Source: Eledone cirrhosa (Eukaryota). Taken from it: a stretch of 64,000 bases of DNA. This document shows positions 2,693 through 25,366 of this stretch, one piece after another (positions within the stretch are counted from its first letter, which is position 1; each line of letters begins with the position of its first letter). The stretch spans positions 28,334,001 through 28,398,000 of the forward strand of contig OZ024762.1 of the NCBI GenBank assembly GCA_964016885.1. The letters are read 5' to 3'. Below the pieces are notes generated by a model. The model was not told the origin of the DNA, made no database searches, and saw only the letters and a program-made list of their open reading frames with translations. The position numbers were made by a program, and so were the translations under genes.

Positions 2693-2694
<2 letters not shown>

Positions 2695-5600
2695 GTAACC
2701 CCAAGGAGAGGGGCTACAGGAGACGGATGCATAACATCTGGAACGAGATTGGTTTATTTAAATTAGATGAACAAAAATTGGCCGGGCAGGCTCGGGTAAT
2801 AAGAACTAATGGGTGGATAAGCGAGCTGGAACTGGAGGAACTGAGCAGAGAGAATGGCTTGGAGATGGCGGGTGTAGTATGCCAGACAAGCGAGCCGGCG
2901 GGAAATGAAGGTGAGGAGGTCCTGAGAGCGGAGGAACCACCCGAAGCAGACAATGATCTGAATACTGAGATAAATAATACCTGGAACAGAGATACGGCCA
3001 CTGAGGAGATGAATGCTGACGGGCTAGGACAAGATTCGGTTGACATCCTAAATTTAGTGGTAGATGAGTTGAACAATGATAGTGGGAGACCTATGAACCT
3101 AAGATTTGTAGACAGGAAAAAATTAAAAGAAACAACAGCTAAGGTAAACAAAGTCATCCCATACCTTGAGGCGAGGAGTCTTCACCAGTGCAACAATATC
3201 CTCAAAGCAACAGCAAATACGGTGAGGAAACTACTTGGTATAAAAGCGAGAGGAAACAACAGACAAGAAAGAGCAGAGCCGTGGTGGAAGAAGCGACTGA
3301 GTGGGCAAATCGGGGAAATGAGAAATGACATAGGAAAGCTTGAGTCACTACTGAATGGGACACTAAAAAACATAGGCACTAAAAATAGACTGGAAATAAA
3401 ATACAAAACTAGGAGTAAAAAGCTAAATATTATCATAGAGGAATTGAAGCAACGCATTGTAGCAAAGAGTGCCAAAATCAGGCGATACGAGAACAGAGTC
3501 AGTCAGTATAAACAGAACCGCATGTTCGACAACAACCAGAAGATGCTGTTTGGACAGCTTGAGGGGAAAGAAAGAGGCACCGACTTGATCCCTGGGGCGG
3601 AACAAGCTAAAACATTCTGGAGAGGAATATGGGAGCAGGATGTTAGACACAATGCCCAGGCAGGGTGGATTGAGACAGTACAGAGGGAGATCGGTGAGCA
3701 GGCACAGCAACAGACTGATTTGAGTATCACAGTTGAAACTCTTAAGGGGCAAGCCAAAAAACTAACCAACTGGAAATCACCAGGCCCAGATGGTGTGCAG
3801 GGGTATTGGATTAAACATTTAACATCCCTCCACCCGAAGCTGACGGCCATGTTCAATGACTGCTTGGTGTCGGGTGAGGTGCCAGAGTGGTTGACAAAAG
3901 GTACCACAGTTCTGATAATGAAAGACCGAATCAAGGGTAATGATGTTACCAACTATAGACCTATCACATGTCTGCCCGTAATGTGGAAACTGTTGACGAG
4001 CATTGTGTCTGAGGAAATCTACCATCACCTCCACACAAACAACTTGTTGCCGGACGAACAGAAAGGATGCCGAAAGAAGTCACGTGGTACAAAGGACCAG
4101 TTGCTTATTGATAAGATGGTAATGGGGAATTGCAGGAGGAGACACACTGATCTTGCCATGGGATGGATAGACTACAGAAAGGCATTTGACATGGTGCCTC
4201 ATTCCTGGATCACCAAAAGCCTGGAGATCTTCAGGGTGGCAGATAACATCAGAGAGTTGCTGGGCAGGAGTATGGGGTCCTGGGAGACAGAGTTGACATC
4301 AACTGGAGTATCCTTGGGAAGCGTGAAGATCAAGAGAGGTATCTTCCAGGGAGATAGCCTGTCCCCTCTGTTGTTTGTCCTTGCCCTGATGCCCTTGACC
4401 ATTATGCTGCGAAAAGTGAGAGCAGGATACAAGTTGGGAAGGGGAGAGCTTACCATCAATCACCTCCTCTTCATGGACGATCTTAAGCTCTTCGGGAAAA
4501 GTGAGAAGGAGTTGGATGTGCTTGTTGACACTGTCCGTATTTTCAGCAGTGATATATGTATGCAGTTTGGTATTGGTAAATGTGGAGTCATTGTGATGAG
4601 GAGGGGTAGGTTGAGCAGAAGTAACGGGATCCAGATACCAACAGGTGAGATGATAAAGGAAATTGACTCTGAGGAAGGATACAAGTATTTGGGCGTTCTG
4701 GAGGCTGATGGCATAAAGAACAAAAAAATGAAGGAATTGTTAAGAACTGAATACATTCGGAGAGTAAGGAGCGTATTGAAGTCACATCTGAACAGCAGAA
4801 ATGCCATAAGCGCAGTAAATTCCCGAGCTGTGTCTATTATTAGGTACAGTGCGGGAATTCTGAGATGGAATGTTGCTGAACAAAAAGAAATGGATAGGAA
4901 GACTAGGAAGCTATTGACTATCTACAACATGTTCCACAAGAGGAGTGATGTCGATAGACTCTACCTAAGGAGATCTGAGGGTGGAAGAGGTCTTATCAGC
5001 ATAGAGGACTGTGTTCAGATGGAGAAAAACAACCTATACAAATACGTGACCTATAGTAAGGAGCCAATGCTCAGAGCTGTACTGAAGGAGGGGAGAGTAG
5101 GCCAGGGGATACCCAAGGAGGAAATAACATCAAGGAGGAAGAGCAGCCTTAAGGGAAAATCCCTTCATAGTACCTTCTTTGAGAAAACTGAATTTAGAGA
5201 TCCACAGACATGGAACTGGTTGAGAAGAGGAGACCTCAAAAAGGCTACAGAAGGAATGCTAATGGCTGCGCAGGAGCAGGCCCTCAAAACGAAGTGGTTG
5301 AAGCACCATATCTACAAGGAGGAGGCTAGCCCACTGTGCAGGATCTGTGGAGAGAGAGAGGAGACTGTGGCTCACATTGTGTCCGAGTGTAAACACCTAG
5401 CCCAGACCCACTATAAGGGCTGGAGACACGATGTGATGGGCAGGGTGATCCACTGGCACCTGTGCAAAGTAAACAATCTACCACATTCTGAGAAATGGTA
5501 TGAGCATAGGCCAGAGGCGGTGATGGAGAACAGTCAGGTGAAGGTGCTGTGGGATTTTAGGATACAGACGGACAAAAAACTGGAACACAATAGACCTGAC

Positions 5601-5983
5601 CTGGTGGTTGTGGACAAAGAAAAAAGATCGTGCCTGATTGTGGATGTGGCCTGCCCGTTCGACACGAGAGTGCAAGAGAAGGAGAGGGAGAAAATTAACC
5701 GATACCAGGACCTAAAGTGGGAGGTGAAAAGGATTTGGAACTGCCATGAAGTCAAAGTGATCCCGATTGTCATAGGCGCACTGGGGACTATCTCCAAAGG
5801 TTTCCAGGGATGGTTAAAGAAAATCGGCCCCTTCACGCTTTTTGGAACGCTTCAAAAGGCATGCTTGCTTGGAACGGCAAGAACCCTCCGATACGTCCTG
5901 AATATCTGAGGCTGCAGGTAGTGGCTTGATATTCAATCCAACGGACTTTCCAGTTAACCAACATCAATGACTGAGATTCAAGG
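2693..5983 (+). mobile_element. Dong/R4-clade non-LTR retrotransposon, slightly 5'-truncated, inserted in (TAA)n
   Basis: RT + RLE ORF, short 3' UTR, (AAT)n on both sides (2646-2692 and 5984-6050). Confidence 0.9.
2727..5909 (+). CDS. R4/Dong polyprotein: reverse transcriptase, CCHC knuckle, restriction-like endonuclease
   Basis: WIDYRKAFD, GIFQGD, LFMDD; CRICGEREETVAHIVSEC; RHD; RPDLVVVD..IVDVACP..EK..RY. The frame is open upstream to 2694 (SNPKERGYRRRM), so the true start is probably lost. Confidence 0.95.
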   Translation: MHNIWNEIGLFKLDEQKLAGQARVIRTNGWISELELEELSRENGLEMAGVVCQTSEPAGNEGEEVLRAEEPPEADNDLNTEINNTWNRDTATEEMNADGLGQDSVDILNLVVDELNNDSGRPMNLRFVDRKKLKETTAKVNKVIPYLEARSLHQCNNILKATANTVRKLLGIKARGNNRQERAEPWWKKRLSGQIGEMRNDIGKLESLLNGTLKNIGTKNRLEIKYKTRSKKLNIIIEELKQRIVAKSAKIRRYENRVSQYKQNRMFDNNQKMLFGQLEGKERGTDLIPGAEQAKTFWRGIWEQDVRHNAQAGWIETVQREIGEQAQQQTDLSITVETLKGQAKKLTNWKSPGPDGVQGYWIKHLTSLHPKLTAMFNDCLVSGEVPEWLTKGTTVLIMKDRIKGNDVTNYRPITCLPVMWKLLTSIVSEEIYHHLHTNNLLPDEQKGCRKKSRGTKDQLLIDKMVMGNCRRRHTDLAMGWIDYRKAFDMVPHSWITKSLEIFRVADNIRELLGRSMGSWETELTSTGVSLGSVKIKRGIFQGDSLSPLLFVLALMPLTIMLRKVRAGYKLGRGELTINHLLFMDDLKLFGKSEKELDVLVDTVRIFSSDICMQFGIGKCGVIVMRRGRLSRSNGIQIPTGEMIKEIDSEEGYKYLGVLEADGIKNKKMKELLRTEYIRRVRSVLKSHLNSRNAISAVNSRAVSIIRYSAGILRWNVAEQKEMDRKTRKLLTIYNMFHKRSDVDRLYLRRSEGGRGLISIEDCVQMEKNNLYKYVTYSKEPMLRAVLKEGRVGQGIPKEEITSRRKSSLKGKSLHSTFFEKTEFRDPQTWNWLRRGDLKKATEGMLMAAQEQALKTKWLKHHIYKEEASPLCRICGEREETVAHIVSECKHLAQTHYKGWRHDVMGRVIHWHLCKVNNLPHSEKWYEHRPEAVMENSQVKVLWDFRIQTDKKLEHNRPDLVVVDKEKRSCLIVDVACPFDTRVQEKEREKINRYQDLKWEVKRIWNCHEVKVIPIVIGALGTISKGFQGWLKKIGPFTLFGTLQKACLLGTARTLRYVLNI

Positions 5984-6144: not shown

Positions 6145-9100
6145 CTAACAGTGCTGCGATCGAATGTGGCTTTTTAGCCCAGCCAATGATCCAAAATGTC
6201 TTGCACAGAGTCGGCAACCAAAACATTTACTGGGAATAGTCGGCTGTGGTTGGAGTTCGTGTACTTTTGCATGTCGCTTGAGTCCTCCTGCTGATTTACA
6301 TTCTCTACCACATGTTTGGCAAGCATGATGAGTAGCATCTCCAACAGCAGCCTGGTAGTCAACCACTGGTCTTACTTTATGACTGCGAAGATGACTTTCG
6401 AGTCCAGCTTTGCTTAGGCAGAGTCTCGCACAGACGCTGCATGTCAGAAACATAGGAGGACCCTCGCCGTCTGGAAGTGCAACAGCAATACCCTTCCTCA
6501 CGTCCCGCTTTACTTTCTCGTGTGCGATTCGAGATGCCTCAAAGGCAACTTTTCCCTCATATACAGTCTTTCTCCATTTATTACGATCAGCAGCAATATT
6601 TTCCCATGTATCAGCAGAGATGTTAGCGTCTCTCAGAGAGGCCTTCAAGGAATCCTTATACCTCTTTTTTGGTTTATGTGGCGGTCGTTTTCCTTTAACC
6701 AACTCTCCATAGAAGAGTTGTTTTGGTATTCTAGAATCCTTCATCCTGGCAAGGTGACCACTCCGACGGAGTCGCTGCTTAAGCACAAGAGCTTCTATAC
6801 TGTCACACATAGAGCTTTCCAAAATCTCGACATCACTGATGTGGTCCCTCCAGCGAACGCCATGTATCCGTCTGAGACACATCTGATGGAAACGCTCCAA
6901 TTGCTTAAGGTGGCGTCGATATGTGACCCAGGTCTCGCAGGCATAAAGAAGACAAGAGAGTACACATGCCCTGTACACCTTTACCTTTGTCCTCCTGCAT
7001 ATGTCTCGCCGACCCCAGAGTCGCCTTTCTAGCTTTCCGAAAGCATCACTTGCTTTCCTAATCCTAAGTGAGATTTCACTGTCAAGGTTGCCGTATCGAT
7101 TGACAGTGCTTCCCAGGTAGACAAACTGATCAACCACTCCAAGTCGTTTGCCATACACATAGATGTTTGGTTCAGTGTACTGCCTACCAGGTGCAGGTTG
7201 GTACATGACGACGGTTTTCTTGAGACTGACAGTCAAACCCAGGGCAGTGCAAGCGTCAGAAAATACATTCAAAATGTGCTGCATATCACTCTCTGTGTGC
7301 GCTACAAGATCGCAATCATCTGCATACAAGAGGTCTCTTATGACTGATGTAAATACTTTTGTCTTCGCAGCAAAGCGCCTGATGTTAAATATGCTGCCTG
7401 AGGTTCGATATCGGATGTAAACACCATGCTCGCAATTCCTGAATGCAATACAGAAAACCATTGCAAAGTATATGGCAAACAGGGTCGGTGCTGGAATATC
7501 CCCCTGTTTCACTCCATTTTTTACTGAGATAGGCTCCGACATGTTACCTCCGACATTAACCCAAGCCTTCATGTCGTCATGGAAAGACCTAACTAAAGCA
7601 AGGAACTTATCAGGGCAACCAAGTTTCTGGAGAACCTTCCATAATGCATCTCTGTTGACAGTATCGAAAGCCTTTGTCAGATCGACAAAAACCTGATACA
7701 GATCCAAGCCCTGTTCAATGCACTTCTCCTGGAGCTGTCTAGCTGAGAAGATCATATCAGTAGTGCCGCGTCCAACACGAAAACCAGATTGACTTTCAGG
7801 AAGGACACAATCTGCAATGTGTGTCAGCAGACGGTCCAGAAGCACCCTACATAAAACTTTCCCCACGACAGAAAGCAATGATATACCTCTGTAGTTCCCA
7901 CAATCATTCCTGTTACCCTTTCCCTTGTACAAGACCACCATTACTGCATCTCTCCAGTCCTCAGGCACGGATTCATTAGCCCATATCCTTCCAAACAGAG
8001 AGTGAAGATGTTGCAGGAGTCTCTCACCACCATATTGTAGGAGCTCAGCATGTATGCCATCCATACCTGGAGATCTTCCACTGTTCAGCTTCGAAATAGC
8101 CACTGCAACCTCCACAAGTGTCGGAGGCTCTGCGAGAGCTACTTTCACAGGACTTTCCGGAATGAGATTGAGGAAATCTTCACTGACGACAGACGGCTGA
8201 TTCAAAAGATCATCAAAGTGCTCCCGCCACCTTCGTAGAATTCCCTGTGAGTCACGAAGAAGTTCTTTGCCATCCCTGCTGCGAATCGGTGTCACCAGAG
8301 AAGAAGACGGTCCATAAACCTCACGCAAGAGACTGTACAACAGCTTTGTGTTATTGCAATCAGACGCAGTTTGTATCTCACCAGCCTTCTCACTCCACCA
8401 CTGATCCTTCATCTGAGAAAGACTCCGCCTAACACGTGATTTTACATCCCTGAGCTCCTCATGCAACGTATTCCTCTCCTGTGGTCTTGCCGTCAAGTAG
8501 CGTGACAGAGCGCGCCTCTTATCAGCCAACAAGTCATCTATATGCACATCTTTCTCATTAAACCAGTCCTGATGTTTTCTCTGCACCAATCCCAGAACAC
8601 GTCTGCCTACATCATAAACCGACTTTTTAAGGGTCGGCCAATCCTCACCAAGATCTGCAGCCTGCATCTCTTCTTCCAATGTCCTCTTCACATTTTTATC
8701 CTTAAGACGAGCAGCATTCAATCTTTTGGGCAGGGTAACACCAGGAGCCCGGATTTTACGTTTGGTGATTAGATTCACTTTTGCGCGTACCAGGCGGTGG
8801 TCCGTCCAGCACTCAGCTCCACGAAGAACACGAACACACCGCACATCCTGTCTGTCACGCATCCTGACTAGGACGTAGTCCAAAAGATGCCATTCCTTAG
8901 ATGCAGGATGCATCCATGTGGTCTTGAATTTGTTCTTTTGTTGGAACATGGTGTTGGTAACACACAGATCCAGCTCCTCACACATCTGCAGCAAGAGCAT
9001 ACCATTGCTGTTACACTTTCCCACCCCATGCCTTCCGATTACATTCCATGTGTTAAAATCCCTACCCACTCTAGCATTAAAGTCACCAAGCACGATGACT

Positions 9101-9690
9101 TTGTCTGCCTGAGGGATATTTCTTAAAACACCTTTCAAGGCATGGTAAAAGGACAGTTTTTCTTCATCGACAGAATTCATAGTTGGAGCATACACACTCA
9201 CCAGGGTAGCATATCTTCCCTTGTCCAGCGGAACTCTCATGGACATAAGACGCTCACTAATCCCCACTGGGAATTCTTCCAATTTATTCACCAGTACAGT
9301 CTTAACAGCAAATCCTACCCCAGCCTCTCTTCTGGTTCCTTCATCTCTTCCTTTCCAGAAGAATGTATATTCTCCACAAAATTCCGTAAGATGACCATCC
9401 CCAGCTAACCTCGTCTCAGACAAAGCCACGATGTCAAGATCGTAACGTCGAAGCTCCTTCGCAACAAGAGCGGTCCTTCGTTCAGGACGCTCCAAAGAAT
9501 CCCTGTCAAGCAGCGTCCGTACGTTCCAGCAGCCAAGACTAAATGCCCTGTTTGGCTCTATTACAATGGCACGATGACGGGCGGGCCCAGGTTGTGATAA
9601 CTTGGGGCCCCTGCCCTTATTGCCAATGATCCCTTTTGTTCCAGAACCCAAATTGGCAATTATCTCGTTTACATTGTTCTGGAACATCAT
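6145..9690 (-). CDS. RTE (BovB-like) polyprotein: APE endonuclease + RT + three C-terminal C2H2 fingers
   Basis: GCWNVRTL, ALSETR, GDFNA, TDHRLV; FVDLTKAFD, GVKQG, LYADD; CSVC..H..H, CQTC..H..H, CRLC..H..H. Confidence 0.95.
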   Translation of the reverse strand: MMFQNNVNEIIANLGSGTKGIIGNKGRGPKLSQPGPARHRAIVIEPNRAFSLGCWNVRTLLDRDSLERPERRTALVAKELRRYDLDIVALSETRLAGDGHLTEFCGEYTFFWKGRDEGTRREAGVGFAVKTVLVNKLEEFPVGISERLMSMRVPLDKGRYATLVSVYAPTMNSVDEEKLSFYHALKGVLRNIPQADKVIVLGDFNARVGRDFNTWNVIGRHGVGKCNSNGMLLLQMCEELDLCVTNTMFQQKNKFKTTWMHPASKEWHLLDYVLVRMRDRQDVRCVRVLRGAECWTDHRLVRAKVNLITKRKIRAPGVTLPKRLNAARLKDKNVKRTLEEEMQAADLGEDWPTLKKSVYDVGRRVLGLVQRKHQDWFNEKDVHIDDLLADKRRALSRYLTARPQERNTLHEELRDVKSRVRRSLSQMKDQWWSEKAGEIQTASDCNNTKLLYSLLREVYGPSSSLVTPIRSRDGKELLRDSQGILRRWREHFDDLLNQPSVVSEDFLNLIPESPVKVALAEPPTLVEVAVAISKLNSGRSPGMDGIHAELLQYGGERLLQHLHSLFGRIWANESVPEDWRDAVMVVLYKGKGNRNDCGNYRGISLLSVVGKVLCRVLLDRLLTHIADCVLPESQSGFRVGRGTTDMIFSARQLQEKCIEQGLDLYQVFVDLTKAFDTVNRDALWKVLQKLGCPDKFLALVRSFHDDMKAWVNVGGNMSEPISVKNGVKQGDIPAPTLFAIYFAMVFCIAFRNCEHGVYIRYRTSGSIFNIRRFAAKTKVFTSVIRDLLYADDCDLVAHTESDMQHILNVFSDACTALGLTVSLKKTVVMYQPAPGRQYTEPNIYVYGKRLGVVDQFVYLGSTVNRYGNLDSEISLRIRKASDAFGKLERRLWGRRDICRRTKVKVYRACVLSCLLYACETWVTYRRHLKQLERFHQMCLRRIHGVRWRDHISDVEILESSMCDSIEALVLKQRLRRSGHLARMKDSRIPKQLFYGELVKGKRPPHKPKKRYKDSLKASLRDANISADTWENIAADRNKWRKTVYEGKVAFEASRIAHEKVKRDVRKGIAVALPDGEGPPMFLTCSVCARLCLSKAGLESHLRSHKVRPVVDYQAAVGDATHHACQTCGRECKSAGGLKRHAKVHELQPQPTIPSKCFGCRLCARHFGSLAGLKSHIRSQHC

Positions 9691-9699
9691 TGAATTGGG

Positions 9700-9730
<31 letters not shown>

Positions 9731-9735
9731 TAATA

Positions 9736-9770
<35 letters not shown>

Positions 9771-11265: not shown

Positions 11266-14398
<3,133 letters not shown>

Positions 14399-14402
14399 AT
14401 AC

Positions 14403-16829
14403 TTGTTAACCTCTTTAAAGAATATACCAATACCTTCTAAGGATGACTTCTTACTCCTTATGATTCAAAAAACCAACCAATTTATCAGAAGAGTTAGATG
14501 GAGGGCCTACCACTTCGATAAAAAATCTAAATATGCAGATAGGAAATATATGTATGATTTCAATACTTACAAGAATCCACCACACAACTCTTTACTTGAA
14601 GACTTTGAGAAAGACCTTTTTAATTTAATTAAACACCTCAAATTTAAGAAGTATAAATCTGTCTTTCAAAAGGACCTTGATTCTACCCTATTGGACCTAA
14701 AAAAGTCTAAAAAAATCCATGTCCACTCGGACAAAACTGGTAACTTGTATCACATGGATATTGAAGATTATAATGAGTTCATATATAAAGAACTCAGGAA
14801 AAATTATAAAAAATCTAATAATGCGTCACTCACCAACATCAACAACAAAACACACAACATAGTAAAAAAACTAAACATTGAAGATAGAACTGAACCTTTG
14901 GCATTGAAAAGACCACACTTCAACCTGAAGGATCATAAATCAAACTTTAACTCAAATCCTTCTATAAGACTTATATGTCCCTCCAAATCTGATATTGGAA
15001 TAATTAGCAAAAAAATTTTGGATAGAGTCATCCCACAAATAAGAAAACACGTTAATTTACCACTCTGGGAAAACACTTCCCAGGTAATTAACTGGTTTAA
15101 AAATATTAGATGTAAATCTTCTGCTTCATTTCTACAATTTGATATAGATAATTACTATTCTTCTATATCACCTATACTCCTGAACAAAGCATTGATATTT
15201 GCTAAAAATAGATCTAACTTAACTTTGGATGACATTAATATTATTACACATGCTAGACTAACACTTATTGAATTTCAGAATGAATACTGGACCAGAAACA
15301 CATATAGTAATCTATTTGATATTACTATGGGTTCAAGCGATTCCGCCCAAATTACTGATCTTGTGGGCCTCTTTCTCCTTTTCAACATAAATGCCTCCTT
15401 TCCCCACCTTAAAGGTGGTTTATATCGTGATGACTGTCTTCTTCTTTCCAACAACCTTAGCCTTTCAGAAATAGAAAAAAACAAAAAGCATATTAGAACT
15501 TTCCTTAAAGACTATTATAGTCTTCATATTACTTTTGAAAAAACAAGTAAAGTAGTAAATTTCCTAGATATAACTTTAGACTTAGCTACGGGTATCTACC
15601 AACCTTACCATAAACCCAACCAAAACTTACACTACATACACTCACAATCTAATCACCCTAAATCTATCCTTAAAAACCTTGCATATAATATATCACTTAG
15701 AATTTCTAACCTTTCTTCTAACCAAGATGTATTTGATAAAAATGCGACCTTCTATAATGAAGCTCTAGATAGAAGTGGCCACAAAAATAGATTAGAATAT
15801 ATACCTTCTACTAAAAATAAAAATACTATAAACATACAACCTAATATTACCAACAAACACCAAATGAAAAGTACACACCTAAATGCCACCCACACTATAC
15901 CCCAAAATACCAACAACTCTTCTAATATAAAGTATAGTAACTCTCAAAAAACTACTCATCATACAACTCTAATAAATGTTAATAATAAAACTTCTAATAA
16001 ACAAGATAAAACACCTAAATCTATAAATCTAACTAAAAATGTGCGTGGTGAGATCATTAACATTAATCCTCCTAGTAAACATCACGATACAACCTATAAA
16101 AATAATAAACAACATAGAAACCGTAATAGACGAGTTACTTGGTATAATGCTCCATTTAATTTACAAATTAAGGATAATATTGCTAAAAAATTTGTTTATA
16201 TCCTAGAGAAAAACTTCCCGCCAAACCACAAATACCATCAAATCTTAAATAGGTCTACAGTTAAATTCTCATACTCAACAACCAATAACATAAAACAAAA
16301 TATAAGTGCCTATAATGCATATAAATGTAAGAATACCATAAGTATACCACCAATACATCAAACTAACCATAATATCTCCTCAAATACAGAATTAACGAAA
16401 GGTTGTAACTGTAGAAACAAAGCAAACTGCCCATTAAAAGGAAATTGTCTTGTTAACAACATAGTTTATAAATGTAATGTTAAAACTAAAGATTCTATTT
16501 GCTCATATATAGGAGCTACTTCTAACAATTTTAAGGCAAGGTTTAATACCCACAAACATAGTTTTAAAAATGCCGCACTGGCTAATACAACATCTCTAGC
16601 AGAAAAAATGAATAGTTATAAAAATAAGAATATAGAATATGATATGACCTGGAGTGTGCTCAAAAGAGCCACCCCTTATCAAAATAATAGAAATGAATGT
16701 AGATTATGTTCCCAAGAACTATTTGAAATAATGAAATCTAAGGATATCCTATTAAATAAACGACAGGAATTAATTATATCGTATAATCATAAACTAAGAA
16801 AAACATTTAAATATTATAAACCTAATTAA
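14403..16829 (+). CDS. PLE reverse transcriptase + C-terminal GIY-YIG endonuclease (Hydra-clade-like); native start probably lost at the inversion junction
   Basis: SLKNIPIP, DKTGN, LKDHK, FDIDNYYSSI, ITMGS, LYRDD, NFLDITL, WYNAPF, CNCRNKANCPLKGNC, IVY..YIGAT..FKARF..HKHSF, CRLC. Clade assignment is from remembered motifs. Confidence 0.92.
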   Translation: MLTSLKNIPIPSKDDFLLLMIQKTNQFIRRVRWRAYHFDKKSKYADRKYMYDFNTYKNPPHNSLLEDFEKDLFNLIKHLKFKKYKSVFQKDLDSTLLDLKKSKKIHVHSDKTGNLYHMDIEDYNEFIYKELRKNYKKSNNASLTNINNKTHNIVKKLNIEDRTEPLALKRPHFNLKDHKSNFNSNPSIRLICPSKSDIGIISKKILDRVIPQIRKHVNLPLWENTSQVINWFKNIRCKSSASFLQFDIDNYYSSISPILLNKALIFAKNRSNLTLDDINIITHARLTLIEFQNEYWTRNTYSNLFDITMGSSDSAQITDLVGLFLLFNINASFPHLKGGLYRDDCLLLSNNLSLSEIEKNKKHIRTFLKDYYSLHITFEKTSKVVNFLDITLDLATGIYQPYHKPNQNLHYIHSQSNHPKSILKNLAYNISLRISNLSSNQDVFDKNATFYNEALDRSGHKNRLEYIPSTKNKNTINIQPNITNKHQMKSTHLNATHTIPQNTNNSSNIKYSNSQKTTHHTTLINVNNKTSNKQDKTPKSINLTKNVRGEIININPPSKHHDTTYKNNKQHRNRNRRVTWYNAPFNLQIKDNIAKKFVYILEKNFPPNHKYHQILNRSTVKFSYSTTNNIKQNISAYNAYKCKNTISIPPIHQTNHNISSNTELTKGCNCRNKANCPLKGNCLVNNIVYKCNVKTKDSICSYIGATSNNFKARFNTHKHSFKNAALANTTSLAEKMNSYKNKNIEYDMTWSVLKRATPYQNNRNECRLCSQELFEIMKSKDILLNKRQELIISYNHKLRKTFKYYKPN

Positions 16830-17322
16830 TAACATTATTTTAGATATTAATATATAATTTAATTTAATTGTTAGTTAACCTATAAATTTAATTTAATTAA
16901 AATTCTACTACAGATGAGATTATAAAATATTGTGTAATCATAAATTGTGAAAAACTTTTAAATATTACTAATATATACTTTGTAAATTAATTTATAGATT
17001 AATTTTAATTTATTTAACCTTTTATTAAAATTCCTTTACAGATAAAATATAACAAAATATCGTGTATTCAATGACAGAGAAATATTTTTTAATATTATAG
17101 ACCTAATTAATGTACAATTTAGAAATATATTTATAATTTGGTTTTAATTTGGTTAACCTAAAAATTTAATTTAATTGGCTTAAAATTAAAATCCTAATAC
17201 AGAGTGCAGAGTGTCATGTAATCATAGACTGAGATAGGTTTTAGATGTATACCTAGTTAATATATTCTTTGCAATTTTTGAAAAAATATGTATATATATA
17301 AGTATGTGTGTGTATATATATA

Positions 17323-17397
<75 letters not shown>

Positions 17398-17800
17398 ATA
17401 TATATATATGAATATATATGTGTGTATATATTAATTTTAATTTTTGTTTACCTATAATTATATTCTACTATAGATAAAATACAATATCTGTTTTAATTAT
17501 TATAAACCTAATTAACATATACTATAGAAATTAATATATAATTTTTAATTTAGTTAACCTATAATTTATATTCTACTACCGATGTAATACTTTATTTGGT
17601 TTTTTTCCCTATTACTAAATTCATTTCCTAATATTGATACCATAACCTTAAATAATTTTAATTTAGTTATACTATAATTAATACTCTACTACTATTTAAC
17701 TTCAAAATTCCGCTTCAAATATTATAAACCTAAGTAGTATACACCTTAGAAATCAATATATTAACTATCTTTAATTTAGTTAACCTATAATTAATAGTCT
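16780..17800 (+). repeat. Degenerate ~110-150 bp tandem repeats in the PLE-B 3' UTR (mirrored at ~12500-13540)
   Basis: Recurrent ATTATAAACCTAATTAA and TTAGTTAACCTATAA motifs. Confidence 0.7.
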
Positions 17801-18080
17801 AATTATATTAAAATGCATAATTTTGCCTTCTTTCTTACATTTCCTAATACTGAAACTACTATGTAAACACATATTATGATCTAAATGCAGATTAATATTC
17901 TATGTTTCTTGAAACCTATATTTACTATAACCCCCCCCCCCCCCTTCCCCCCCTATTATTATTTGTATTTGTAAGCGTGGATGTATGTATGTATATGTAG
18001 GTAGGTATGTATGTTTGGGTGTTTGTATGTGAGTATAAAAATACATATGTGCGCATGTAAATAAGGGTGTATGATTGTAT

Positions 18081-18125
<45 letters not shown>

Positions 18126-18240
18126 TGTATCTATGTATTTATGTGGGTATATGTGTGTATGTATATGTATGCGCATGTATACGTCTATGTGTATATGTGT
18201 GTATGTGTATATATGTACGTATATGTGCATGTATATGTGA

Positions 18241-18284
<44 letters not shown>

Positions 18285-18330
18285 AGTTGATGTGTGTATG
18301 TGTATATATATATATGTATGTAAATGTATG

Positions 18331-18399
<69 letters not shown>

Positions 18400-18520
18400 G
18401 TGTATATATATATATATATGTATGTGTGTGCATATTTGTCTGACTGGGTGTATTAATTTATTTATTTATTTATTTATTTTATTTTATTTTTTTATTTCTT
18501 TATTTTTATATATATGTATA

Positions 18521-18565
<45 letters not shown>

Positions 18566-18861
18566 GTGTGTGTGTATGTATATGTATGTATGTATGTATG
18601 TATGTGTATATATATGTGTGTGTGTGTGTATGTGTGTATATATTTATATGTGTATATATATCTTTATTTATATATGTATATATGTGTATATATATCCCTT
18701 TATTTATGTATGTCTGAGTTGTGTGAGCGTGTGGTTGTGTTTGTATGTGTATACGCATACATGGATGTGTATGTATGTGTATATATGCGTATATATATGT
18801 GTGTATGTGTGTGTGTATATATGTATGTCTATGTATGAGTATATATATGTATGTATGTATA

Positions 18862-18930
<69 letters not shown>

Positions 18931-18996
18931 TATATACGTGTGTGTATATATATATATATATTTGTGTATATGTGTATGTGTACATGTGTGTGTGTA

Positions 18997-19102
<106 letters not shown>

Positions 19103-19143
19103 GGTATGTATGTGTATATGTGTATATACATGAGTGTATTTAT

Positions 19144-19189
<46 letters not shown>

Positions 19190-19402
19190 TGTGAATGTAT
19201 GTATATATGTATGTGTGTATATATATATATATATATATGTGTGTATATATGTATATGTCTATGTATTTATATGTGTATATGTATATGTCTCTATATGTAT
19301 GCGCGTGTGTGTATGTGTATGTGTATATATATGGTGTGTGTATGTATAACTATGTGTATGTATGTGTTTATGTGTATGTATGTGTTTATGTGTATGTATA
19401 TG

Positions 19403-19451
<49 letters not shown>

Positions 19452-19477
19452 ATCGATGTATATTTTATATTTTACTT

Positions 19478-19538
<61 letters not shown>

Positions 19539-19808
19539 CTTAATATTTTTCTTTTTTCTTCTTCTTTTTATTTCTAAATTTATAGATACATTTATAAATA
19601 GGCAGTTTGCTGACACCAGTAAATACTGACCTCTTCCCCCCCCACCTACTTTTTGTATCTGGATCTAAATATGTGTGGCAGTGTTTATGTGCGCGCATTA
19701 ATGTCCATATGCTTATGATAATAGTATATACACATATATGTGTGTGTGAGTGTGTGTGTGTATGTATGTTCGTGGTTGTGTGTATGTTTATGCGTATATG
19801 CGCGTGTG

Positions 19809-21735
19809 CTCTGCAAACCCAAAAGTGTGTGCAGCCAGAGAACACCTGAAAGCTGCCAGGGACCAATTCTATGCTGATCCTACGGAGGAGCGGATGGAGA
19901 CTGTGGAGGTGATGAGGGAAGAGCTCTGTACCACTTACACTGAGGTCAGAGAGGAGGCACTGATAGAGAAGATCAGAAGTGTGGAGAGAGCGGTTGACAT
20001 ATCTGGATGTAAGGAGAGCTGGATGATCATCAACGAGATCACAAGGAGGAAGAAAAGGTGTTCGAGTCAGATCCAGGGAACGGGGCCCGAGGATAGGAAG
20101 AGGAAATGGCTAGACCATTTTAGGACCCTACTAGGAGAGCCACCCTCCACAGCCCAGAGCACTGGGGAGATCAGGCGGCTGTTTGAGGAACTGGATGTTG
20201 AGACAGAGCCCTTCACCAGAGAGGAGCTTCAGAGAGCCAAGAAGAAGATCAAGGAGGGCAAGGCTCATGGAGAAGATGGAGTGGCATCAGAGGTGATGAA
20301 GAGGTGTGATTTTGATGATATCATCCTGGGGTTCTGTAACGGGGAACTGGAGAAAGGAGTTGCCCCGAATCAGTGGAGGATCAGTAACATCGTCCCAGTG
20401 CCAAAGAAGGGAGATCTCTCTAACACCAAAAACTACCGGGGGATCTCACTGACGTCACTTATGGCAAAGACCCTCAACAGGATGATTCTTAACAGGATCC
20501 AGCCTGAGATGGAGAAGAAGCTCAGGGACAACCAGAACGGCTTCAGAAAGGGTAGATCAACCACCAGTCACATCCTGATGCTGAGGAGGATATTAGAGGG
20601 AGCTAGAGCAAAGTGCCTTCCTGCGGTCATGGTTTTCATTGACTTTAGGAATGCCTTTGATTCTGTGGACCGTTACTGCCTGATGAAGATCTTACAGGCT
20701 TATGGAATCCCCAAGAGGATAGTGGACCTGATATCACTGCTCTACACCAACACCAAAGCCCAAGTCATTACACCTGATGGGATGACAGAGTTCTTTGAGA
20801 TACTGGCTGGAGTGCTCCAGGGAGATACATTGGCTCCCTACCTTTTTGTCATCGTAGTGGACTATTGTATGCGCCTTGCACTGGAGAAACACCAGGACTC
20901 TGGATTTACTGTAGCACCGGCTCAGAGCAGGAGAGTTGGGGCGAAAAAGGTATCGGATGCTGAATTTGCCGACGACATAGTTTTTGTGACAAATACAGTG
21001 AAGGAGGCAGAGGATTTGATGCGGGAGGTTGAGACTGTGTCGATGAGTGTGGGGCTGAGAATGAATGAGACTAAAACAAAATATCTGGTAGAGAATGTTG
21101 AGAAGCCAGAGGGGATCACTAATGTAGGCGGGAAGCCGCTGGAATTGGTTGAGGACTTCCTGTATTTGGGAGCAAAGATTGGGAATACGGAGGATGATGT
21201 GGTTGAGAGGAAGAGCAAGGCCTGGGCGGCGTGCCACAGCTTGAGATCGGCGTGGAAGTCGGACCTTCGTAGAGACCTGAAAATCCGCCTCTTCATTGCT
21301 GTAGTGGAGTCTGTGCTGCTGTGTGGGTCTGAGACTTGGACACTGACCAAGAAACTCACTCAGATGGTGGATGGGTGCTACACGAGAATGCTGAGGATGG
21401 CTCTGAACATTAATCAGTATACACTGAGGATGAAAAACTCAGAGCTGTATGGGAGCATCCAAAAAGTCAGCTCAAAAGTGACACAGAGGAGACTGAGGTT
21501 GGCTGGACATGCTCACCGACATCCAGAGTTGACATTGCACTCAGTGCTCCTTTGGGAGCCCCTACATGGACACACTAGAAGAGGAAGACCAAGGTTAACA
21601 TATGTTGATGCCCTAAGGACAGACACTGGTCTGTTGGAGATGCAGGATATGGCAGCGATAATGAGGGACAGAGACCGCTGGAGAGAACTCGTCCATGGAT
21701 CTCGGGAATTTTACCCGCCTTAGATAGATAGATAT
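19809..21735 (+). mobile_element. RTE-X-like LINE copy 1, 5'-truncated (RT only; frame open 19810-21723)
   Basis: [51 protein letters not shown]; ends TAGATAGATAG then TA-rich repeat. Confidence 0.9.
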
Positions 21736-21781: not shown

Positions 21782-22156
21782 GTATACATATATATACATA
21801 TATATGTATATATATACATATATATGTATATATATACATATATATGTATATATATACATTGAAACAAAATGAAAACGAAATTTCATTTCTCACTCTTAGT
21901 ATGGCACTTACTTAAATGTAAGTATGCATGTATACGTACATACATATATGTATACAGACGTACAGTAGCATGCACATATATATATATATATACATATATA
22001 CATACATATGCATACAGGTACACATACATATATGCACGTATCAGTTTAGCGGCGCTAACGTCGCTTTGTTCGTTTGTAAACAAACTGAACAGCCTGAATT
22101 TATGCCATACGGTGTTAAGGCAACCACGTCACCTTTTTGTTCAACACTGACACAGG

Positions 22157-22201
22157 AACGATGTACTAGTTTCAAGCTTGTTAGCTATCATCAGCACCGT
22201 T
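22157..22201 (-). ncRNA. Minimal type I hammerhead ribozyme (array 1, copy 1)
   Basis: Minus strand: AACGGTG-CTGATGA-T-AGCT-AACA-AGCT-T-GAAA-CTAG-TA-CATCGTT. Confidence 0.88.
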
Positions 22202-22622
22202 TACCCATCTGCCAGATAGTTGAACGTTCGAAAGTATATACTTTCCTTATGAAAATTAACGGCTGAGCAGCCTAATTTGCATATTGAGTGAGTTAAATCA
22301 GTCAGGCATACCGAAAACGATAAATTGAAACAAAATGAAAACGAAATTTCATTTCTCACTCTTAGTATGGCACTTACTTAAATGTAAGTATGCATGTATA
22401 CGTACATACATATATGTATACAGACGTACAGTAGCATGCACATATATATATATATATACATATATACATACATATGCATACAGGTACACATACATATATG
22501 CACGTATCAGTTTAGCGGCGCTAACGTCGCTTTGTTCGTTTGTAAACAAACTGAACAGCCTGTATTTATGCCATACGGTGTTAAGGCAACCACGTCACCT
22601 TTTTGTTCAACACTGACACAGG

Positions 22623-22667
22623 AACGATGTACTAGTTTCAAGCTTGTTAGCTATCATCAGCACCGTT
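22623..22667 (-). ncRNA. Minimal type I hammerhead ribozyme (array 1, copy 2)
   Basis: Identical to 22157-22201. Confidence 0.88.
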
Positions 22668-23084
22668 TACCCATCTGCCAGATAGTTGAACGTTCGAAAG
22701 TATATACTTTCCTTATGAAAATTAACGGCTGAGCAGCCTAATTTGCATATTGAGTGAGTTAAATCGGTCAGGCATACCGAAAACGATAAATTGAAACAAA
22801 ATGAAAACGAAATTTCATTTCTCACTCTTAGTATGGCACTTACTTAAATGTAAGTATGCATGTATACGTACATACATATATGTATACAGACGTACAGTAG
22901 CATGCACATATATATATATACATATATACATACATATGCATACAGGTACACATACATATATGCACGTATCAGTTTAGCGGCGCTAACGTCGCTTTGTTCG
23001 TTTGTAAACAAACTGAACAGCCTGAATTTATGCCATACGGTGTTAAGGCAACCACGTCACCTTTTTGTTCAACACTGACACAGG

Positions 23085-23129
23085 AACGATGTACTAGTTT
23101 CAAGCTTGTTAGCTATCATCAGCACCGTT
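23085..23129 (-). ncRNA. Minimal type I hammerhead ribozyme (array 1, copy 3)
   Basis: Identical to 22157-22201. Confidence 0.88.
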
Positions 23130-23540
23130 TACCCATCTGCCAGATAGTTGAACGTTCGAAAGTATATACTTTCCTTATGAAAATTAACGGCTGAGCAGCC
23201 TAATTTGCATATTGAGTGAGTTAAATCGGTCAGGCATACCGAAAACGATAAATTGAAACAAAATGAAAACGAAATTTCATTTCTCACTCTTAGTATGGCA
23301 CTTACTTAAATGTAAGTATGCATGTATACGTACATACATATATGTATACAGACGTACAGTAGCATGCACATATATATATATATATACATATATACATACA
23401 GGTACACATACATATATGCACGTATCAGTTTAGCGGCGCTAACGTCGCTTTGTTCGTTTGTAAACAAACTGAACAGCCTGAATTTATGCCATACGGTGTT
23501 AAGGCAACCACGTCACCTTTTTGTTCAACACTGACACAGG

Positions 23541-23585
23541 AACGATGTACTAGTTTCAAGCTTGTTAGCTATCATCAGCACCGTT
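23541..23585 (-). ncRNA. Minimal type I hammerhead ribozyme (array 1, copy 4)
   Basis: Identical to 22157-22201. Confidence 0.88.
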
Positions 23586-23727
23586 TACCCATCTGCCAGA
23601 TAGTTGAACGTTCGAAAGTATATACTTTCCTTATGAAAATTAACGGCTGAGCAGCCTAATTTGCATATTGAGTGAGTTAAATCGGTCAGGCATACCGAAA
23701 ACGATAAATTGAAAGAAAATGAAAACG

Positions 23728-23947
23728 AAAAAGGTGACGTGGTTGCCTTAACACCGTATGGCATAAATTCAGGCTGTTCAGTTTGTTTACAAACGAACAA
23801 AGCGACGTTAGCGCCGCTAAACTGATACGTGCATATATGTATGTGTACCTGTATGCATATGTATGTATATATGTATATATATATATATATGTGCATGCTA
23901 CTGTACGTCTGTATACATATATGTATGTACGTATACATGCATACTTA
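23728..23947 (+). repeat. Inverted partial unit at the 5' end of array 1
   Basis: Reverse complement of ~21919-22138; ends in (TA)n. Confidence 0.93.
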
Positions 23948-24011
23948 TATATATACATATATATGTATATATATACATATATATATATATGTATATATAT
24001 ACATATATATG

Positions 24012-24172: not shown

Positions 24173-24255
24173 ATATAGATAATTTAATATATCAACTAAC
24201 ATAAGCGCACAGATGCACGCCCATGCTAGCAAATACACAGGTTATGTCATAGTAC
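24173..24255 (-). repeat. Inverted partial unit at the 5' end of array 2
   Basis: Reverse complement of 24442-24524; abuts (TA)n. Confidence 0.93.
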
Positions 24256-24805
24256 GATGACGCAATGAATTCTCGACAGTTGGATTATGTAACTGTCTTT
24301 ATCCCATTGCAGAAACTAATTAGTTGGAGTGAAAATTTAAGTAAGTAAGTAAAAAATTTTTAAAAATTTTTTTAAAAAATATTTTCTTATTTTACGTCTT
24401 TTATATTATTGTTCTGCATTCTCCTGCATTGAACCACCTAGGTACTATGACATAACCTGTGTATTTGCTAGCATGGGCGTGCATCTGTGCGCTTATGTTA
24501 GTTGATATATTAAATTATCTATATTTATCTCCAAATCACTGATTTGTCGAGCAAACTTGCCAAAACCACTTCTAAAAAAATTTTTTGGGGTGTTAGTAGG
24601 CGTCAGTCATCTTACCAACCCATTCCTTCTAACTAGCCTCTGTGTCACGTGATTGATTCTTTAGAATCGGCCATTTGACCTGAAGCAGTGAGAATTTCGG
24701 TACATAGAATCCAGTCCTCGCCAGCTGTTCGATCTACCGAATTATTATTATTTTTATATGAGCCGCCAGTGTCCGCGCATTGCCTGGAGACTTAACTGAG
24801 AATAG

Positions 24806-24887
24806 ACTCCCTGATGACGCAATGAATTCTCGACAGTTGGATTATGTAACTGTCTTTATCCCATTGCAGAAACTAATTAGTTGGAGT
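24806..24887 (+). ncRNA. Type I hammerhead ribozyme with extended stem II (array 2)
   Basis: ACTCC-CTGATGA-C-GCAATG..GACAGTT..AACTGTC..CATTGC-A-GAAA-CTAATTAG-TT-GGAGT. Confidence 0.85.
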
Positions 24888-25366
24888 GAAAATTTAAGTA
24901 AGTAAGTAAAAAAAATTTTTTTTAAATTTTTTTAAAAAATATTTTCTTATTTTACGTCTTTTATATTATTGTTCTGCATTCTCCTGCATTGAACCACCTA
25001 GGTACTATGACATAACCTGTGTATTTGCTAGCATGGGCGTGCATCTGTGCGCTTATGTTAGTTGATATATTAAATTATCTATATTTATCTCCAAATCACT
25101 GATTTGTCGAGCAAACTTGCCAAAACCACTTCTAAAAAAATTTTTTGGGGGTGTTAGTAGGCGTCAGTCATCTTACCATCCCATTCCTTCTAACTAGCCT
25201 CTGTGTCAGGTGATTGATTCTTTAGAATCGGCCATTTGACCTGAAGCAGTGAGAATTTCGGTACATAGAATCCAGTCCTCGCCAGCTGTTCGATCTACCG
25301 AATTATTATTATTTTTATATGAGCCGCCAGTGTCCGCGCATTGCCTGGAGACTTAACTGAGAATAG

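Follow-up and report, generated by a model that had tools for sequence, protein, structure and literature searches.

What kind of element leaves behind a tandem array of non-coding, ribozyme-bearing repeats with an inverted piece at one end, and which machinery puts such an array in place? The question is raised by Array 1, which lies in a stretch of 64,000 nt of Eledone cirrhosa DNA (assembly GCA_964016885.1, contig OZ024762.1, positions 28,334,001 to 28,398,000 of the forward strand), referred to here as the window. We propose that Array 1 is a non-autonomous retrozyme that was probably pasted in, in one event, by a Penelope-like element (PLE), probably of the Hydra clade. It combines ends of the PLE type with ribozyme units that are purely non-coding, and the clade that it points to is Hydra. 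Comparisons with published systems draw on parts of the cited sources.

Units and hammerhead motif of Array 1

Array 1 consists of four full units, a partial fifth unit and an inverted piece (Table 1). The unit register was set from A21858, and nucleotides of the monomer are counted from the predicted cleavage site. An initial annotation of this DNA had described four near-identical non-coding units and a 220-bp inverted piece joined through an A-run microhomology. Both descriptions hold. The units show 97.6-99.6% identity to unit 1, and the inverted piece, which matches unit 1 with 0 mismatches, overlaps the direct array by three A residues (23728-23730). Among the four full units there are only two substituted columns and two microsatellite indels, every one private to a single unit, and the partial fifth unit adds one further substitution. 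Since the units differ at so few positions, Array 1 is, as far as its sequence can tell, a young insert. Within the 64-kb window the repeat occupies a single locus.

The same 45-nt hammerhead is found on the minus strand of all four units with every core nucleotide intact. In unit 1, helix I is formed by 22201-22195 with 22163-22157 (7 bp including one G·U), the CUGAUGA core occupies 22194-22188 and is followed by a U·U, and GAAA lies at 22173-22170. Helix II has 4 bp closed by an AACA loop (pair probabilities 0.9-1.0), the helix III region is the palindrome ACUAGU and the cleavage site is GUA, a natural but somewhat slower site (PMC1636495). This agrees with the motif as annotated initially, namely a 45-nt minus-strand hammerhead with a 7-bp stem I, a 4-bp stem II, ACUAGU and GUA. 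Absent from that description was the U·U mismatch that takes the place of G10.1-C11.1 at the base of helix II. The alignment to the Rfam family HH9 reads this helix otherwise, as U·U followed by 3 bp and a 6-nt loop. The motif is not due to chance: a type I descriptor matched only the four array motifs in 64 kb, and 20,000 dinucleotide shuffles of the unit gave one match, and none with a helix I of at least 6 bp. For the 96-nt hammerhead region the computed folding energy is -29.1 kcal/mol (z -3.1), a value that none of 200 shuffles reached.

Closing helix III within a monomer is computed to cost about 5 kcal/mol, while an intermolecular ACUAGU duplex of 6 bp would yield -4.8 kcal/mol. The energies support a model in which helix III would be too weak in the monomer and the 6-bp duplex would form between two copies. 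Consequently, one half of the earlier label "dimer-type minimal" hammerhead can be kept, in that the palindromic helix III appears too weak for a monomer, whereas the other half has to be given up. Minimal hammerhead ribozymes (min-HHRs) of metazoan PLEs have a helix II of 7-8 bp, a helix I of 4-5 bp and G10.1-C11.1 (PMC4209133). The Array 1 motif is like them in being type I, in its predicted dependence on dimers and in its palindromic helix III, but it lacks their build, having a 4-bp helix II, a 7-bp helix I with a predicted extension and the U·U (PMC4209133).

The unit is non-coding. Its longest stop-free frame (114 codons) runs through the microsatellite, and a search of the unit for tRNAs found none. 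A tblastn comparison of 120 PLE and 120 RTE relatives with the unit gave 0 matches, against 118 for the control, a PLE 3' end, and on this basis we rejected the possibility that the unit is what is left of PLE or RTE coding sequence. The GC content is 36% (0.36). The predicted circle folds at -151 kcal/mol with 69% of nucleotides paired (z -7.2, 60 shuffles); this z-score comes in part from the TA hairpin, because the antisense circle also scores -5.1. Rfam microRNA matches on the TA hairpin (e.g. mir-297, 50.5 against 90 bits) were rejected as simple-sequence matches.

In published work, non-LTR (non-long-terminal-repeat) retrozymes are recognised when two or more units, each with a complete type I hammerhead, follow one another in tandem (bioRxiv 10.64898/2026.07.22.740005); a target-site duplication, where present, exceeds 4 bp. 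Array 1 has tandem hammerhead units (4/4) that are non-coding and 456-466 nt long, with GC below 50% and a self-paired predicted circle. The retrozyme-like identity given to it initially is therefore well founded, as each of its tandem non-coding units carries an intact type I hammerhead, and by these features we regard it as a previously undescribed member of the animal non-LTR retrozymes, a published class.

As for transcription, newt satellite 2 has a promoter of the small nuclear RNA (snRNA) type (PMC2220036). Each unit has one copy of the octamer ATGCAAAT, which precedes the ribozyme core by about 80 nt. Its four matches in the window all lie inside the array, against 6.2 expected, so that it is a weak lead as a promoter element. 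The octamer is part of snRNA-type promoters. Another possible promoter element is a perfect 16-bp palindrome with a TATATA centre (22230-22245), which follows the octamer at a distance of about 30 nt and closely precedes the extended hammerhead stem.

Ends of the insert and target site

Monomer nt 306 marks the 3' end of the direct array and nt 284 its 5' end. Both outer ends of the insert are 3' ends in the RNA sense; they are internal to the unit and lie 59-63 nt apart. The segment between them forms a "tail" that is present at the direct 3' end only. Both flanks are TA tracts sharing 2 nt with the element at each outer junction, and they may hold a target-site duplication of 33 or 13 bp. 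Random pairs of cuts in these periodic tracts gave a duplication of at least 33 bp in 223 of 15,895 cases (1.4%).

This arrangement matches that of endonuclease-containing (EN+) PLEs, whose insertions are described as a partial tandem that carries a 5'-truncated copy in inverted orientation at its 5' end, and a tail at one end only (PMC8557442; PMC3846280). Such a layout is explained by in vitro work in which a PLE protein was reported to nick and extend both strands of AT-rich DNA, with two internal starts on the RNA that bound the tail (PMC11167929). The ends of Array 1, where an inverted copy of the 3' region minus the tail of ~61 bp sits in a TA target, look like the PLE insertion signature, which the initial annotation overlooked.

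On its inner side the inverted piece stops at 22138 (unit 1 coordinates), immediately next to 22139, where the extended hammerhead stem has its base. A cDNA that stalled there would be expected to leave this picture, although a single event makes this anecdotal. All four cleavage junctions are identical and free of scars. Because of this identity, the template was presumably continuous across the junctions, i.e. a circle or an uncleaved multimer. The array had been interpreted initially as a rolling-circle or template-jump cDNA. The retrotransposed origin stands, but jumping between cleaved monomers is disfavoured, both by the scar-free junctions and by the positions of the ends (nt 306 and 284) far from the cleavage site. 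A 3' transduction by the adjacent RTE is likewise disfavoured, since that element has the opposite sense, no similarity to the unit and a separate flank duplication.

Probable relationship to the Hydra clade of PLEs

The ribozyme itself provides a further indication. For Hydra-clade hammerheads, we made our own tally of the 26 rows (25 families, one of them twice) in File S1/S2 of PMC8557442. A U·U at the base of helix II is found in 14 of the 26 rows, and the combination of U·U, 4 bp and a 4-nt loop, as in Array 1, in 10; helix III reads ACU..AGU in 17 rows and the cleavage site is GUA in 12 (PMC8557442). The target is (TA)n in 26 of the 27 Hydra-clade families listed (PMC8557442). In other words, Hydra-clade PLEs resemble Array 1 in the (TA)n target, the inverted 5'-truncated copy and a hammerhead with U·U, 4-bp helix II, tetraloop, ACU..AGU and GUA. 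They differ in forming a partial tandem with an open reading frame (ORF) for reverse transcriptase (RT) and GIY-YIG, whereas Array 1 has four full repeats and no such ORF or remnant (PMC8557442). Taken as U·U followed by a 4-bp helix II with tetraloop, a helix III ACU..AGU and a GUH site, the build of a Hydra-clade PLE hammerhead is present in the Array 1 ribozyme, a point missed at first reading. Array 1 most likely derives from a PLE of that clade.

A Hydra-clade PLE with an inversion like that of Array 1 is present in the window itself (11266-19535), 5 kb from Array 1. The motifs RWR, DKT and CxCX5C of its 810-aa ORF recur in 93, 105 and 99, respectively, of the 120 relatives listed, and a Pfam search of this ORF returned no family. 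Searching genome contigs with the protein gave 24 pattern matches, none of which was confirmed. As far as it can be read from its sequence, this PLE shows that the machinery existed in the genome, not that its family was the partner of Array 1.

Table 1. Positions within the 64,000-nt window of Array 1, its parts and related features
Feature	Position	Strand	Description
Unit 1	21858..22323	-	466 bp; bears the insert's 3' end, read in ribozyme sense
Unit 2	22324..22789	-	466 bp
Unit 3	22790..23251	-	462 bp; microsatellite shorter by 4 bp
Unit 4	23252..23707	-	456 bp; microsatellite shorter by 10 bp
Partial fifth unit	23708..23730	-	23 bp; direct array 5'-truncated here, monomer nt 284
Inverted piece	23728..23947	+	220 bp = unit positions 62-281 = monomer nt 26-245; without ribozyme core
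Hammerhead, unit 1	22157-22201	-	Type I; predicted cut after A22164
Hammerhead, unit 2	22623-22667	-	Predicted cut after 22630
Hammerhead, unit 3	23085-23129	-	Predicted cut after 23092
Hammerhead, unit 4	23541-23585	-	Predicted cut after 23548
Long interrupted stem prolonging helix I	22139..22225	-	Predicted fold, unit 1 coordinates
TA/CA-rich microsatellite-like segment	21915..22040		Long predicted hairpin; approximate limits, unit 1
Octamer ATGCAAAT	22275..22282	-	Once per unit
"Tail"	21858..21918	-	59-63 bp; missing from inverted copy; between two stem-loops
Possible target-site duplication, left copy	21827..21859		33 bp, or last 13 bp; including 2-nt element overlap
Possible target-site duplication, right copy	23946..23978		33 bp, or first 13 bp
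Array 2	24173-26031	+	About 3.2 units of 561 bp; type I hammerhead x3; 83-bp inverted head
Hydra-clade PLE ORF	14397..16829	+	810 aa; RWR, DKT, CxCX5C motifs; Asn-rich linker
Inverted 5'-truncated copy of Hydra-clade PLE	11266-14398		3.1 kb; extends through TA-rich DNA

Proposed course of the insertion

Based on these observations, the following scheme can be suggested. The minus strand would have been transcribed through several units. Two hammerheads would pair their ACUAGU palindromes and cut after GUA, releasing monomers of 456-466 nt that a host ligase may circularise. A PLE protein with RT and GIY-YIG activities would then nick both strands of a TA tract, and reverse transcription would start at monomer nt 306 and nt 245. 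One cDNA would copy four complete units and a further 23 nt, its template being a circle or an uncleaved multimer; the other, 220 nt long, would break off where the long hammerhead stem has its base. Finally, the 3' ends of the two cDNAs would anneal via AAA/TTT and be repaired. By analogy, cleavage of the transcript by the hammerhead is fairly likely, while the formation of monomer circles is possible but, on balance, slightly doubtful. The complete version, in which Array 1 is the fossil of a single event that involved a Hydra-clade PLE protein, a ribozyme-made circular RNA of about 466 nt, two internal starts and four rounds of copying, is put forward only tentatively, and we would sooner doubt it than rely on it. 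If the scheme is right, other copies should have the same fixed ends, at monomer nt ~306 and ~245, and the dimer should be cleaved after GUA.

A number of points weigh against this account. The evidence comes from one locus only. The Array 1 unit shows no similarity to the 3' region of the window PLE, which has degenerate subrepeats of about 140 bp and a decayed hammerhead-like core at 16911. In the Hydra-clade rows with ACU..AGU the two halves are separated by 3 nt in 17 of 17 cases, compared with 0 nt in Array 1. The distance from the ribozyme to the 3' end is about 340 nt in Array 1 versus about 90-210 nt in most Hydra consensus rows, and the tail of 59-63 bp exceeds the usual 30-40 bp of PLEs (PMC8557442). 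The U·U at the base of helix II is also seen in an axolotl motif and so may not be Hydra-specific (PMC7229834). At the level of the ribozyme, no match in the Rfam search reached the gathering threshold, Hammerhead_HH9 scoring 18.5 bits (E 0.023) where 52 are needed, and the three core-side pairs of helix I have ensemble probabilities of only 0.18-0.28. The folding of the antisense circle adds to this list, as do two published results, namely that PLE insertion in vitro did not depend on cleavage by the ribozyme (PMC11167929) and that eight of nine Xenopus retrozyme dimers did not cleave in vitro (bioRxiv 10.64898/2026.07.22.740005). As for the target site, random cut pairs in the flanking TA tracts produce a duplication of at least 13 bp in 2,768 of 15,895 cases (17%), so that the shorter one is common by chance. 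Lastly, the geometry of the inversion fits twin priming by a long interspersed nuclear element (LINE) equally well, and the PLE and twin-priming models each need one coincidence of about 60 in 466.

Alternative explanations

The explanation nearest to the scheme above has the same mobilisation step and differs from it in the RNA steps only. The array might have been mobilised by a PLE from an uncleaved multimer, with no circle, while the hammerhead was passive or a protein-dependent pseudo-LTR relic. Cleavage of a PLE hammerhead in vitro required the protein (PMC11167929), min-HHRs cleave poorly (PMC4209133), and the dispensability of cleavage, the inactive Xenopus dimers and the weakly predicted inner pairs of helix I are all in keeping with this idea. 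However, the core is intact in 4/4 copies, the dimer palindrome is perfect and helix I has 7 bp; in addition, the retrozymes of coral, mussel and axolotl accumulate as circles (PMC7229834). We consider an idle hammerhead unlikely, though it deserves to be taken seriously. The growth of the array could also be explained differently: if the PLE put in only one or two units along with the inverted piece, the array might then have grown in place by unequal crossing-over or slippage, and no rolling circle would be needed. A scenario of PLE-end amplification has been discussed (bioRxiv 10.64898/2026.07.22.740005), and a very recent duplication at the DNA level would also yield near-identical units. 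Yet no variant is common to two units, so that stepwise duplication has left no trace, and the inverted piece has the majority state at every position; with just three substitutions and two indels, this test of variants is a weak one. Local amplification seems improbable to us.

Another possibility is that no PLE was involved and that a LINE RT (RTE, CR1-like or L1) twin-primed a multimeric transcript. If the second primer annealed about 40 nt upstream of the point reached by the first cDNA, the result would be an inversion that lacks a short segment (monomer nt 246-283). Twin priming is known to yield 5' inversions with microhomologies at all three junctions (PMC2912911) and duplications of 10-20 bp (PMC4245944). 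It fits the geometry, as only about 40 nt separate nt 284, where the direct part has its 5' end, from nt 245, where the inverted piece starts, and an RTE-like LINE, likewise at a TA tract, ends 120 bp from Array 1. On the other hand, Array 1 has neither a poly(A) nor a LINE-like 3' tail and is not similar to the RTE 3' end, and 5' inversions came almost exclusively from human L1 in assays (PMC4245944), whereas none of the eight ORFs scanned in the window is L1-like by our own reading of clades. The type of ribozyme points to PLEs, and in the neighbouring Array 2 no such adjacency exists between the direct 5' end and the inverted piece. It is because of the ribozyme type, the missing LINE tail and Array 2 that we favour PLEs over twin priming, which we regard as quite improbable. 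It might also be asked whether the inverted piece or the number of units is an artefact of assembly or of long-read fold-back, given how many microsatellites and nested repeats the window contains. The units have private differences, however, the inversion, accompanied by a tail and a possible flanking duplication, is asymmetric, and the same pattern of inversion is seen in two other elements of the window, which makes an artefact very improbable.

Surroundings of Array 1 and related motifs elsewhere

The window is made up of animal repeat DNA, with LINE fragments, TA microsatellites and a 40-bp satellite. The neighbours of Array 1 suggest a host that is probably a marine invertebrate, and the named hits come from a cephalopod, ctenophores, lancelets and a sea urchin, with 37-57% identity. 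Array 2 and Array 1 stand head to head across a single TA tract; their sequences are unrelated save for a 12-nt match. The hammerhead cores of Array 2 lie at 24811, 25372 and 25933. Helix I has 5 bp, helix II is long with an inner hairpin, helix III is the palindrome ACUAAUUAGU and the cleavage site is GUU. The direct part of Array 2 begins within the ribozyme core, and its 3' end is missing where the array meets a truncated LINE. That Array 2 has an inverted head of its own suggests that such insertion recurs in this genome.

Between TA tracts at 32748-32781, the minus strand has a solo motif like a min-HHR, with a helix II of 6 bp and a helix I of just 2 bp, which is probably a decayed PLE end. 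As for the LINEs, the names RTE and CR1-like are based on our own reading of the proteins, since Pfam gave RVT_1 and endonuclease domains only. Two near-identical 5'-truncated RTE-like copies (19750-21735 and 29072-29990) have short GATA repeats at their ends that run into TA tracts. CR1-like fragments at 26070-27118 and 33188-34236 form an inverted pair (1,049 nt, 98%), the left one adjoining four copies of a 10-bp A/T repeat (26032-26070). Two long intact retroelement frames are placed tail to tail: 1,071 aa at 2694-5909 (+), with an RT and, by our own reading, a C-terminal restriction-like endonuclease, and 1,207 aa at 6145-9768 (-), with APE, RT and C2H2 fingers. The satellite takes up 27.6 kb (36385-64000) with about 695 copies of its 40-bp unit (86% matches), and recurring 29-bp variants suggest a higher-order structure.

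In metagenome contigs, the exact pattern of the Array 1 ribozyme had 0 matches. A looser pattern was found at 32 metagenome, 11 genome and 1 viral contig loci; none of these 44 loci is similar to the unit by blastn, and 6 of 44 have a helix I of at least 4 bp together with a helix II of at least 3 bp. Three metagenome loci (L007, L012 and L026) are tandem repeats of 600-625 bp that are related to one another and carry a canonical type I hammerhead with ACUAGU and a GUC site. Unlike Array 1, they have a G-C pair at the base of helix II, and they show no similarity to the unit; they look like undescribed retrozymes. At five other loci (L001, L016, L018, L029 and L031), hammerhead-like motifs lie in imperfect palindromes of 300-360 bp, like small inverted PLE-end insertions.

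Significance and comparison with known systems

PLEs have been named as likely movers of animal retrozymes (PMC7229834; PMC7761336). In Xenopus, co-occurrence of PLEs and retrozymes as well as pseudo-LTR homology have been described, with the mechanism left to elucidate (bioRxiv 10.64898/2026.07.22.740005). If Array 1 is indeed the fossil of a single event, it would provide evidence at the level of junctions, beyond co-occurrence or pseudo-LTR homology, for the mobilisation of animal retrozymes by PLEs. It would also name the clade and offer a minimal non-coding substrate with mapped starts for an in vitro PLE assay. Its value is nevertheless moderate, because the class is already known and one locus cannot prove a mechanism. 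An open literature search, with subscription journals outside its scope, returned no paper on PLE-type ends of retrozyme arrays. The main texts of PMC7229834 and bioRxiv 10.64898/2026.07.22.740005 mention no inverted 5' piece or tail, and their supplements may show such ends.

Animal non-LTR retrozymes are similar to Array 1 in having tandem non-coding units of a few hundred bp with GC below 50% and one type I hammerhead each, with a weak palindromic helix III, and in a predicted circle that is self-paired (PMC7229834; bioRxiv 10.64898/2026.07.22.740005). The unit of 466 bp is slightly over one published size range (150-450 bp; PMC7229834) and within another (51-972 bp; bioRxiv 10.64898/2026.07.22.740005). 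The nearest systems are axolotl Rtz_353 with HHR_Amex2 and newt satellite 2 (PMC7229834); no sequence relative was found. Like the Array 1 motif, HHR_Amex2 begins helix II with a U·U; its helix III has 2 bp, and it cleaves weakly as a monomer and efficiently as a dimer (PMC7229834).

Among PLEs, a comparison can be made with PAc, a Poseidon element from Anolis. It is autonomous and has a tail of the 30-40-bp type and an AC-rich start loop, whereas the proposed starts in Array 1 flank U-rich/AU-rich hairpins and are 59-63 nt apart (PMC11167929). What PAc and Array 1 have in common are two internal RT starts, proposed ones in Array 1, that bound a tail and both lie near stem-loops, an AT-rich target and a ribozyme located upstream of the starts (PMC11167929).

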